From Acidobacteriota bacterium (lineage in GTDB: Bacteria > Acidobacteriota > Vicinamibacteria > Vicinamibacterales > UBA8438): DNA of 64,000 nt. Location of the stretch: contig DQNS01000034.1 in NCBI GenBank assembly GCA_015659035.1, positions 1,372-65,371 on the forward strand, written 5' to 3'. A program made the translations under genes and the position numbers. Numbering within the stretch: position 1 is the stretch's first letter; the number at the start of each line of letters is the position of its first letter. Below the pieces are notes generated by a model. The model did not search any database. It was given only the letters and a program-made list of their open reading frames with translations, and was not told the DNA's origin. Positions 31,339 to 34,256 of this stretch are shown here, piece after piece.

Positions 31339-31458
31339 TGCGTTGTTCCTCCGTCAAACACTGCCGGTATTCTCACGGTCACGCCTTGTAACAGCCTGGC
31401 GCGGCATTGCTGACGACGGGTCTCGGTGCGACGCGGGACCTTCAGCACGGACTGCTAG
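31281..31458 (+). mobile_element. family-A repeat, copy 5: MITE-like, perfect 22-bp terminal inverted repeats, CTAG duplication
   Basis: CTAGCAGTCCGTGCTGAAGGTC...GACCTTCAGCACGGACTGCTAG; removing 174 nt restores ATG AGC CTA GAC ATC (MSLDI) of the peptidase. Confidence 0.85.
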
Positions 31459-31558
31459 GCTCATGAGGTGGAGTATAGCAGCGGCCGCGCCGTCAGCCGG
31501 TGACACTTGCGTCGTCATCTACTGGTTTGGACGCCGGACTTTATGTGAAGGTTGGGAC

Positions 31559-31981
31559 GTGCCGTTCCGCTTTTTCGACCACACCGCCGACGTCGGTCTC
31601 GAGCTGAGCGCGCCTACCCTGCCGGCGCTCTTCGAGGAGGCGGCCCTGGCGCTGAGTGCGGTGCTCTCCCGGTCAGGGCGGGTCGAGCCGCGGCGCCACG
31701 TGTCTGTCTCGCTGACGGCGCCCTCTCTCGAGCAGCTGCTCGTCGACTGGCTCGCCGAGCTCCTCGGCCGGTTCGACGTCGAGCTGTGGGTGACCGGCGG
31801 GGTCGAGGTGACGGTTGACCGCGGTGACGGACGCTGCAGCTTGCAGGCGCTGGTCGCCGGCGAGCCGCTCGACCTCCGCCGCCACCCGGGCGCGCTACCG
31901 GTGAAGGGCATCACGTATCATCGGCTCAGCGTCCTGCAGACCGCTGACGGCTGGTGCGCCACCATCGTGCTCGATGTGTAG
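31559..31981 (+). CDS. archease (RtcB activator)
   Basis: F.FFDHTADVG, LEQLLVDWLAELL, VKGITYH, C-terminal VLDV; directly upstream of rtcB. Confidence 0.92.
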   Translation: MPFRFFDHTADVGLELSAPTLPALFEEAALALSAVLSRSGRVEPRRHVSVSLTAPSLEQLLVDWLAELLGRFDVELWVTGGVEVTVDRGDGRCSLQALVAGEPLDLRRHPGALPVKGITYHRLSVLQTADGWCATIVLDV

Positions 31982-31994
31982 GAGAGAGCTCTAC

Positions 31995-32114
31995 AGAAGT
32001 CAGGAGTCAGTCCTTCGACAACAACACCCCTGTGCTCTGCTCAGGATGAGCGGACGGAAGTCAGGAGAAGCCGGCCTGTCCGCCGTCGCCTTGGCGAAGG
32101 CGGGAGGGCTTTGC
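31995..32114 (+). repeat. family-C composite repeat, copy 1
   Basis: Heptamer run, then a 49-nt core (32007-32055) identical to 40485-40533 and 52483-52531, then a GCCTGTCCGCCGTCGCCTTGGCGAAGGCGG hairpin. Confidence 0.88.
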
Positions 32115-32150
32115 CGCGTTGCTTGAGACACTCACTGGAAAGGCCGGACC

Positions 32151-33602
32151 ATGCCGACACGAGGCGTGCACCTAGAACAGATCGATCCGTATCGCTGGCG
32201 GGTGCCGAGACAGGGCGGGATGCTGGTGGACGGTATCGTCTACGCTGACGCCGCGGTGGCCGGTGATCTGCGTCACGACCCGAGCCTCGAACAGGTCTGC
32301 AACGTCGCGCATCTGCCTGGTATCGTCGGTGCATCGCTCGCGATGCCGGACGTGCACTGGGGCTACGGGTTTCCGATCGGCGGGGTGGCGGCCACCAGCC
32401 TCGACGGCGGGGTCATCTCGCCGGGCGGGGTCGGCTACGACATCAATTGAGGCGTCCGTCTGCTGCGCTCAGGTCTGAGCCGCACCGACGTCGCCGACCA
32501 TCTACCCCGGATTGCCGATCGGATGTATCACAACGTCCCCACAGGAGTGGGGGCGCGCCGGCGGGATCTGCAGCTCTCGTCCCGCGATCTGCGGGCCGTG
32601 CTCGAGCGCGGGGCCGCGTGGGCGGTGGCGCGTGGATACGGTACCGAGGCGGATCTCGAGCGGGTGGAGGAGCGCGGCTGTCTCCCAGGTGCCGACCCCG
32701 ACCTGCTGTCCGCACGGGCACTCGAGCGGGGGCGGCCGCAACTCGGGACGCTCGGGTCTGGGAACCACTTCGCCGAGCTGCAGTATGTCTCCGAAATCTA
32801 CGACGCGCCGGTGGCGGCCGCGTTCGGGCTCCGATTGGATCAGGTCACAATCATGCTCCACAGCGGGTCCCGCGGGCTGGGACACCAGGTCTGCCAGGAC
32901 CACCTCCGGGTCATGGTCGACGCCAGTCGCCGCTACGGAATCGCGCTACCGGACCGCCAGCTGTGCTGCGCGCCGCTCGAGTCCCCGGAGGGTCGCCGGT
33001 ATCTGGCCGCGATGTCGGCTGCGGCCAACTTTGCGTTCGCCAACCGACAGGTGATGGCGCACTGGGTCCGCGAGAGCGTGGCGGAGGCGCTGGAGATCGC
33101 CCCCGAGGCCACGCAGCTGGACACCCTGTATGACGTGTGCCACAACATCGCGAAGCTGGAGACGTTCCAGATCGATGGGCGGCCTCAACGACTCTGCGTC
33201 CATCGGAAGGGAGCAACCCGGGCCTATCCGCCCGGGCACCCGGACACCCCGGCGCCCTATCGCCATGTCGGTCAGCCGGTGCTCGTGCCGGGCGACATGG
33301 GTCGGTACTCGTATGTGTTGGTCGGCACCGTCCAGGCGATGCGAGAGACGTTCGGTTCCACCTGCCACGGGGCGGGACGGCGGATGAGCCGGAGACAGGC
33401 CACGCGCGTCGGCGACGCACGTGGCCTGCTCGACGAGCTCCGCGCTCGCGGTATCCATGTGCGGGCCGCTGGTCTGGCCACGGTGGCCGAAGAGCGACCG
33501 GAGGCCTACAAGGATGTCGCCGACATCGTGCGGATCGTCCACGCGGCGGGTGTGAGCACGCGGGTTGCACAACTGCGCCCGCTGGCGGTCATCAAAGGAT
33601 GA
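32151..33602 (+). CDS. rtcB: RtcB RNA ligase, 483 aa, with in-frame TGA (codon 100) at the catalytic Cys position: candidate selenoprotein
   Basis: ORF-track pieces 32151-32450 and 32523-33602 are in one frame. [88 protein letters not shown] and IKG are all intact. Confidence 0.9.
32451..32495 (+). promoter_or_regulatory. putative bacterial SECIS element
   Basis: GGCG/CGCC, CGTC/GACG and TGCGCTCA/TGAGC(C)GCA stems with GGTC apical loop (32472-32475) 21 nt after the TGA; CAGGTCTG equals the fdhF SECIS apex. Confidence 0.75.
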
Positions 33603-33686
33603 GGCGCGCGGCGCGAGAAAAGCAAGGCGCCACGCGAACACCAGGGTCCGCGGGCACCCGTCGGGAGGTTTTCTGCTAGCGGGCTG

Positions 33687-34256
33687 CTAGCGGGCCGGGG
33701 TCTCTGCTTCGTCAGACTCGTCGGTCTCCTCGGTGTCCTCCTCCACCGGCGTCGGCTCCTCCATCTCTTCGAACACGTTGGCCTCGACCACGCCGTTCTG
33801 GTGGGTGAACTCGTAGTTGCTACGATCCATCCGCGAGTCGCGCGGCACCCGCAGCGTTATCTCGACGACCTCGTCAACCAGGAACGGACGCCGCATCCGG
33901 TGGGAGTCGCCGGTCACGGTTTCGCCGTCGCTGTCATACCAGAACTCGTCCACCTTGAACCCCGCGAGCGCGCCGGTCGAGATGTTCTTGATCCGGAAAA
34001 CGGTGACGATCGCGTTGCCCTCACGCCTCGTCACGGGTGGCAGGTAGCCGATTTGCCCGGGCCCCCGCATCGTGGCGACCAGCCGCGAGTCGCCCTCGCT
34101 CTCGAGCAACTCGCGCATCGTCGGCCCTTGGACCGCCGTTGCCGCAACGCTCCCCGCATCGCTCCCCACGTCGCCGGCGTCTGGGCTCCCACAGCCGACC
34201 GCGACGAGACCGACCACCACCGCACCGAGTAGCGCCACTAGATTCAGGCGTCTCAT
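33687..34256 (-). CDS. hypothetical lipoprotein
   Basis: GGAGG SD, signal peptide ending LVAVG-C (lipobox), acidic tail; upstream TTGAAG-N18-TATAAT promoter (34325-34296). Confidence 0.7.
   Translation of the reverse strand: MRRLNLVALLGAVVVGLVAVGCGSPDAGDVGSDAGSVAATAVQGPTMRELLESEGDSRLVATMRGPGQIGYLPPVTRREGNAIVTVFRIKNISTGALAGFKVDEFWYDSDGETVTGDSHRMRRPFLVDEVVEITLRVPRDSRMDRSNYEFTHQNGVVEANVFEEMEEPTPVEEDTEETDESDEAETPAR

Follow-up and report, generated by a model that had tools for sequence, protein, structure and literature searches.

The RNA ligase RtcB holds its catalytic metals with a cysteine that is described as conserved or invariant. We analyse an rtcB gene in which the codon for this residue is TGA, a candidate selenocysteine (Sec) codon. 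The gene lies on the forward strand of a 64,000-nucleotide stretch from an Acidobacteriota bacterium (GenBank assembly GCA_015659035.1, contig DQNS01000034.1, positions 1,372 to 65,371), referred to here as the window. The window's contig (C72) belongs to a 3.18-Mb assembly of 150 contigs, with 66.8% G+C and 89% completeness, and the nearest named relatives of this genome are metagenome-assembled genomes (MAGs) of the Vicinamibacterales (Acidobacteriota). The gene is the only copy of rtcB in the genome and has an archease gene directly upstream. It spans 32151-33602 as a single 483-codon frame, and translation bears out the original prediction that the frame is interrupted once, by TGA at 32448-32450, between the residues ...GYDIN and GVR.... 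The terminal stop at 33600-33602 is likewise TGA and falls at the conserved C-terminus (...AVIKG). Open reading frame (ORF) calling with table 11 cuts the gene into a 99-aa ORF (32151-32450) and a 359-aa ORF (32523-33602). The features of the locus are collected in Table 1.

Read through the TGA, the product is a complete member of its family. It matches Pfam RtcB (PF01139) from profile position 1 to 426 of 426 (571.5 bits against a cut-off of 27; E 1.8e-171), and it matches the solved structures of Thermus thermophilus TTHA1785 (E 9e-179) and Pyrococcus horikoshii PH1602 (E 9e-167). In the alignment with the P. horikoshii structures (1uc2/4dwq), the TGA column is Cys98, and Asp95, His203, His234, His329, and His404 are identical in the window's product, as Asp97, His206, His237, His331, and His406. 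In the P. horikoshii enzyme, metal M1 is bound by His234, His329, and Cys98, and metal M2 by Cys98, Asp95, and His203; replacement of Cys98 by Ala abolishes all ligation steps, and Cys98 was seen as a sulfonic acid in one crystal (PMC9745838). The active-site Cys is called conserved or invariant (PMC12263435, PMC10630183). Its human counterpart, Cys122, is an invariant, oxidation-sensitive residue (PMC12263435), and the human enzyme needs a dedicated protector of this Cys, PYROXD1 (PMC9745838, PMC12263435, PMC10630183). Thus, two further parts of the original prediction hold: the TGA stands on the metal-bridging Cys with the other RtcB motifs intact, and the roles it gave for E. coli C78, P. 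horikoshii C98, and human C122, namely bridging of two Mn ions and sensitivity to oxidation, are those in PMC9745838, PMC10630183, and PMC12263435. The metal-ligand set is complete, provided that the UGA at the Cys98 position is read as Sec, the chalcogen analogue of Cys.

Table 1. Features of the rtcB locus (positions in the window)
Feature	Position	Strand	Basis
Whole rtcB coding sequence with the internal TGA translated (483 residues, then the terminal TGA)	32151..33602	+	translation, Pfam, structure alignment
Asp97 codon (P. horikoshii Asp95, M2 metal ligand)	32439..32441	+	alignment; role from PMC9745838
In-frame TGA, proposed Sec100 codon (P. horikoshii Cys98, E. coli Cys78, human Cys122)	32448..32450	+	alignment, orthologue DNA
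Extended stem-loop resembling a Sec insertion sequence (SECIS), starting directly after the TGA; lower stems in the window sequence and close relatives	32451..32495	+	minimum free energy -25.8 kcal/mol
Conserved apical SECIS-like hairpin: 8-bp stem, one bulged C, loop GGUC (32472-32475), 14 nt after the TGA	32464..32484	+	pairing, entropy, motif counts
His206 codon (P. horikoshii His203, M2 ligand)	32766..32768	+	alignment; PMC9745838
His237 codon (P. horikoshii His234, M1 ligand)	32859..32861	+	alignment; PMC9745838
His331 codon (P. horikoshii His329, M1 ligand)	33141..33143	+	alignment; PMC9745838
His406 codon (P. horikoshii His404, guanylylation nucleophile)	33366..33368	+	alignment; PMC9745838
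rtcB terminal TGA, the same codon acting as stop	33600..33602	+	translation, alignment
Archease gene, Pfam domain part (mechanical ORF 31343-31981)	31565..31981	+	PF01951, E 3.7e-35, ORF residues 75-212

The TGA recurs across orthologues. Among 61 related genomes, 12 carry a full-length orthologue at E <= 1e-145; six of these, including the window's genome, have exactly one TGA, and the other six have none. The carriers are the six closest sequences (100, 86, 85, 73, 72, and 71% identity), and their DNA places the TGA in the same column in all six; the next nearest orthologue, at 58% identity and from the same family, has TGT. A second set comprises the 80 best loci from contigs representing one genome per species, where TGA occupies the column in 20 and a Cys codon in the other 60. 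The two sets combined yield 24 distinct TGA forms after removal of 2 duplicates. Their hosts are Acidobacteriota (Vicinamibacterales, 'Candidatus Marinacidobacterales', and other Acidobacteriota) and Thermodesulfobacteriota/'Deltaproteobacteria' MAGs (Syntrophaceae, Syntrophobacterales, Desulfobacterales, Desulfarculaceae, and others). At class level, an even sample of 201 genomes gave 36 RtcB matches at E <= 1e-120. TGA is present in 8 of the 36; these belong to the 10 matches with at least 64% identity, and the 26 matches at 55% or less are all free of it. The alternation of Cys and UGA that the original prediction proposed to look for is therefore found, the remainder being Cys wherever the DNA column was read, and the TGA is not a peculiarity of this genome among relatives that all have Cys. 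The presence of TGA in the same column of 24 distinct orthologues excludes chance.

The genome encodes a full set of genes for Sec insertion. These are selA (442.9 bits), selB (winged-helix domain, 64.8 bits), selD (291.1 bits; cut-off 125), and selC, the tRNA-Sec, which has the anticodon UCA and lies at the end of contig C68 (identified by ARAGORN; Rfam RF01852, 51.9 bits, gathering score 47). Absence of these genes would have counted against Sec; all four are present. SelA is also found in 5 of the 5 other Sec-RtcB genomes tested, although one, a 74%-complete assembly, holds a fragment only; among five Cys-RtcB relatives tested, it is found in 3 and not found in 2.

Moreover, rtcB is not the only candidate user of this machinery. 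A second selenoprotein gene, formate dehydrogenase-N alpha (fdhA), has an in-frame TGA (G000:C30:31363-31365) in the motif typical of Sec, with a 7-bp hairpin after it; read through the TGA, its product scores 1343.8 bits against TIGR01553 (cut-off 814). This gene came from a genome-wide scan for a hairpin combined with an ORF, in which the thresholds on third-position G+C content (GC3) were too strict to recover rtcB, so the scan is no census. Other candidates from the scan looked like adjacent genes sharing one frame and were set aside. The selD gene itself (G000:C139:40101-41024) lies in an 808-codon stop-to-stop open frame free of internal stops, which indicates a SelD without Sec, perhaps with another domain fused to it or lying ahead of it.

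A hairpin follows the TGA, as the original prediction had stated; its backing comes from comparison across orthologues and not from folding energy. It has the form expected of a bacterial SECIS, a stem-loop shortly 3' of the UGA with G/U in the apical loop, judged by the distance and loop that published SECIS models prescribe, and fdhA of this genome has a similar hairpin behind its TGA. In its named register, the apical hairpin is 87.5% paired over the 24 TGA forms (Sec forms), compared with 24-41% in six slid registers. Conservation at synonymous sites is the clearest signal of the hairpin in these sequences: third-position entropy over codons +5 to +10 is 0.54, 0, 0.87, 1.04, 0, and 0.66 bits for the Sec forms, as against 1.42-1.96 bits for the Cys forms; further downstream it is about 1.5-1.9 bits in both. 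The core motif occurs in 22 of 24 Sec forms versus 2 of 62 Cys forms. The median folding energy of a 30-nt segment is -9.45 kcal/mol in Sec forms versus -5.5 kcal/mol in Cys forms (Mann-Whitney p = 5e-7, which is overstated because the sequences are related). An Rfam scan of 32380-32580 (E up to 10) returned no SECIS family, only a chance match (Scr5676, 11.8 bits).

The association also holds in reverse. In metagenome contigs of the Joint Genome Institute (JGI), we searched for the core of the hairpin, correctly spaced from a Sec position at which TGA, TGC, or TGT was allowed. At least 120 stretches match, and the 80 loci examined among them comprise 74 with TGA, 5 with TGC, and 1 with TGT. 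Most of these loci, where uncut by the contig end, have exactly 383 open codons after the TGA. One TGA form (L130) stays open for only 75 codons downstream, short of the end of its contig, and may have suffered a frameshift or be decaying.

The sequence beyond the TGA evolves as coding sequence. Compared pairwise with seven other Sec forms, the window's rtcB has ratios of nonsynonymous to synonymous substitution rates (dN/dS) of 0.077-0.216 downstream of the TGA, against 0.148-0.235 upstream of it; codons that would go untranslated if the TGA were a true stop are thus no less constrained than those that precede it. Relaxed selection downstream, which would have spoken for decay, is not seen; selection there is purifying.

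The history of the column is one of repeated change. For 86 distinct orthologues (24 Sec and 62 Cys forms), a maximum-likelihood tree built by quick search with SH-like approximate likelihood ratio (SH-aLRT) support only and from an alignment that retained the Sec column and the hairpin-encoded peptide needs 11 Sec/Cys changes, of which at least 7 are forced by well-supported branches. Every Sec form falls within one subclade of 68 rows. Three Cys forms nested among the Sec forms (L058, L071, and L084) still have the hairpin, as do six Cys-coded metagenome contigs with TGC or TGT (L142, L149, L161, L163, L166, and L203). These Cys-coded, hairpin-bearing genes are probably relics of Sec-to-Cys reversion and fit a history in which such reversion was repeated.

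The TGA is present in independent DNA. The window is nearly complete (at least half of sampled words) in 14 DNA runs and is found whole or in part in 20 runs from 16 studies, in marine-sediment, cold-seep, or seawater habitats. Two of these runs may be the source of the assembly, and we compared two others. A contig from run X3 spans 32082-32503 with no differences; a contig from run X4 spans 32285-33700 and differs inside rtcB at 32315-32333. Both keep TGA at 32448-32450, where a sequencing error would have been exposed by TGC or TGT.

Several explanations other than Sec must be weighed. The TGA could be a nonsense mutation at the catalytic Cys codon of a dead or dying gene. A single substitution turns TGC or TGT into TGA, rtcB is dispensable and decays in some relatives (the G002 and G004 fragments described below, with several stops), and the short metagenome copy L130 has the look of such a gene. 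Decay does not, however, keep a TGA in 24 distinct orthologues of two phyla and in 74 metagenome loci (among the 80 examined of at least 120), hold dN/dS downstream to the values given above, preserve exactly 383 open codons past the TGA in most loci uncut by a contig end, or confine to TGA forms a hairpin conserved at synonymous sites. Downstream selection and the recurrence of the TGA effectively refute a pseudogene, which we regard as very improbable. An assembly or sequencing error, or genome-wide reassignment of TGA (for example to Trp or Gly), is harder still to credit. What speaks for either is the bare possibility that attends a metagenome-assembled genome. Against error stands the same TGA in independent assemblies from other studies and in many other species. 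Against reassignment, TGA is the commonest stop in the genome, closing 866 of 1727 open frames of at least 400 codons, and rtcB itself closes with TGA at the conserved C-terminus. Together, the independent contigs and the common use of TGA as a stop refute both.

Alternatively, the UGA may be recoded without Sec, by near-cognate insertion of Trp or Cys, or the UGA and hairpin may act mainly as a regulated termination switch that yields mostly a 99-residue product. UGA is the leakiest stop codon, and Sec decoding is usually inefficient, so that a truncated product would be expected in any case; furthermore, the identity of the inserted residue is a prediction from sequence. Yet the hairpin lies where a bacterial SECIS should, has the expected G/U in its apical loop, and resembles that of fdhA; SelA is present in 6 of 6 Sec-RtcB genomes tested; and Cys is the sole alternative seen in the column, the usual pattern for Sec. 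In addition, Trp at the metal-bridging position would give a dead enzyme, since the change of Cys to Ala abolishes all steps (PMC9745838). We consider recoding without Sec unlikely.

Decoding as Sec is the reading we prefer, and we hold it with strong confidence: rtcB at 32151-33602 is very probably an intact selenoprotein gene whose UGA at 32448-32450 is decoded as Sec via SelB and the hairpin. The gene displays every sequence-level feature expected of a bacterial selenoprotein gene. The original prediction had favored Sec recoding over decay, and the recurrence of the TGA, the Sec machinery, the hairpin, and purifying selection all point the same way.

The proposed mechanism is as follows. 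SelB carrying Sec-tRNA(Sec) would recognize the mRNA hairpin at 32464-32484, and the UGA would be decoded as selenocysteine; we infer with high confidence that Sec is inserted at residue 100 in this manner. The product would be a full-length, 483-residue RtcB in which Sec replaces the Cys that bridges M1 and M2. It is otherwise predicted to be a standard GTP- and Mn-dependent 3'-phosphate/5'-OH RNA ligase, working with the archease encoded upstream. A selenolate is fully ionized at physiological pH, and oxidized selenium forms are easily reduced. Because of these properties, and because the oxidative weak point is documented for P. horikoshii and human RtcB, we propose with modest confidence that the selenolate may keep the binuclear metal site assembled under conditions where Cys goes irreversibly to sulfinic or sulfonic acid. 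A shift in the metal preference of RtcB is a further possibility.

A number of observations weigh against Sec decoding or temper it. A public 460-aa RtcB (P0001) with 95% identity to the window's product carries Cys in the Sec position, and the peptide downstream is identical in the two; the pair may represent a very recent Sec/Cys switch within a species or genus. Two species of the same genus hold only short rtcB fragments with several stops, TGA and TAG (G002:C9:54161-54490; G004:C245:2985-3578), so rtcB appears to be decaying there and to be dispensable in the lineage. Taken together, the Cys form and the decayed copies imply that neither Sec nor RtcB is indispensable in this lineage. The folding energy of the stem-loop at 32451-32495 is ordinary for its G+C content (z = -1.07, with 27 of 200 shuffled sequences folding just as well), and no base pair shows a two-sided compensatory change in fixed register across the 24 TGA forms. 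RNAalifold retains the 4 innermost pairs only, again with no compensatory change, and some sequences (L057, L097, L106, and L021) keep a perfect stem in a shifted register. Support for the hairpin is thus by conservation and register-shifted variants, and not by covariation or energy. Metatranscriptome contigs (X15, X16) lie on both sides of the TGA, with none bridging it, and such contigs are no proof of transcription. Sec at this site is also not automatically tolerated, nor the substitution trivially neutral: P. horikoshii RtcB engineered to carry Sec at residue 98 (U98) spontaneously cleaved a nearby peptide bond (PMC4150793). Finally, selenium incorporation into RtcB is predicted from nucleotide and protein comparisons, and the rationale, that Sec might make the active site less prone than a thiolate to irreversible oxidative or metal-induced inactivation, is one that we infer.

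The neighborhood of the gene is that of an ordinary rtcB. Archease is an activator of RtcB guanylylation. Its gene adjoins rtcB in 77 of 90 loci, 23 of the 24 with a Sec form and 54 of the 66 with a Cys form, which places the Sec form in the normal functional setting of RtcB. The spacer between the two genes in the window (31982-32150) holds short dispersed repeat modules, with 55 blastn-short matches over many contigs, two of them elsewhere in the window's contig. Metagenome contigs pile up on this spacer, with a summed depth of 87-151 compared with about 10-33 on the flanks and with many loose ends. The spacer looks like an intergenic repeat of the repetitive extragenic palindromic (REP) or miniature inverted-repeat transposable element (MITE) kind.

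The window's RtcB can be set against 3 kinds of known system. It shares with Cys-type RtcB (P. horikoshii PH1602, T. thermophilus TTHA1785, E. coli RtcB, and human RTCB) the full length of PF01139, the Asp and His ligands, the His nucleophile, and the adjacent archease; it differs in that the metal-bridging residue is encoded by UGA, read here as Sec, and not by a Cys codon. With selenoprotein genes of the fdhA/fdnG type it shares an in-frame UGA at the position of the homologues' Cys, a nearby 3' hairpin with apical G/U, and dependence on selA, selB, selC, and selD. Sec also ligates the catalytic metal in FdhA and in [NiFeSe] hydrogenase (PMC13188914). RtcB, unlike these, is a nucleotidyl-transfer RNA ligase and not an oxidoreductase, and its Sec would bridge a binuclear Mn site. 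The third system is the engineered P. horikoshii U98 protein, made with the UTu system (Haruna et al. 2014, PMC4150793), which has Sec at exactly the same residue. That protein is artificial, with Sec encoded by UAG, delivered by EF-Tu, and inserted with no SECIS; the natural forms are under purifying selection.

The same residue is a landmark for inteins. The best NCBIfam match of the window's RtcB is the model for intein-containing RtcB (NF038162), split at residue 99/100 (32445-32450). [quoted passage not shown]

Full-text searches of the open literature turned up no natural Sec form of RtcB, and the engineered U98 protein alone appeared (PMC4150793); supplementary tables and subscription journals lie outside this scope, and the statement is one of 'not found in print', not of 'never reported'. 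Table 1 of PMC13188914 (May 2026) names neither RtcB nor any other RNA ligase among its 119 families and subfamilies of prokaryotic selenoproteins. The terms ligase, splicing, COG1690, and UPF0027 have no occurrence in that paper or in PMC12013277, the 2023 RtcB review PMC10630183 has no word beginning 'selen', and NCBIfam has no Sec-specific RtcB model.

Current gene annotation hides such genes. Public gene calls store the window's product (32523-33602) as a 359-residue C-terminal fragment (P0009), in a cluster of 84 sequences, in line with the original prediction that standard pipelines would split it. Since gene callers truncate Sec-RtcB, RtcB is under-counted in Acidobacteriota and Thermodesulfobacteriota, and so are their selenoproteomes.

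As a wider proposal, we suggest tentatively, and with more doubt than belief, that Sec-RtcB constitutes a selenoprotein family not reported before, the first selenoenzyme to act in RNA repair and ligation, with a selenolate in place of the 'invariant' metal-bridging thiolate. It may have arisen as an inbuilt defense against oxidative, copper-promoted inactivation, a threat that animals meet with the separate protector PYROXD1, and it may shift metal preference. At its simplest, Sec-RtcB would add one more family to the list of selenoproteins, as a familiar enzyme in Sec form. Computational discovery of new selenoprotein families is fairly common; this one would stand out by its chemistry, with Sec as a ligand bridging the metals of a ligase that is not a redox enzyme, and by its tie to the known susceptibility of RtcB to oxidation. 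A Sec-RtcB would extend selenoproteins from mostly redox enzymes to a nucleic-acid ligase, and a natural, widespread Sec form would provide a ready comparison of thiolate and selenolate at a binuclear Mn center.

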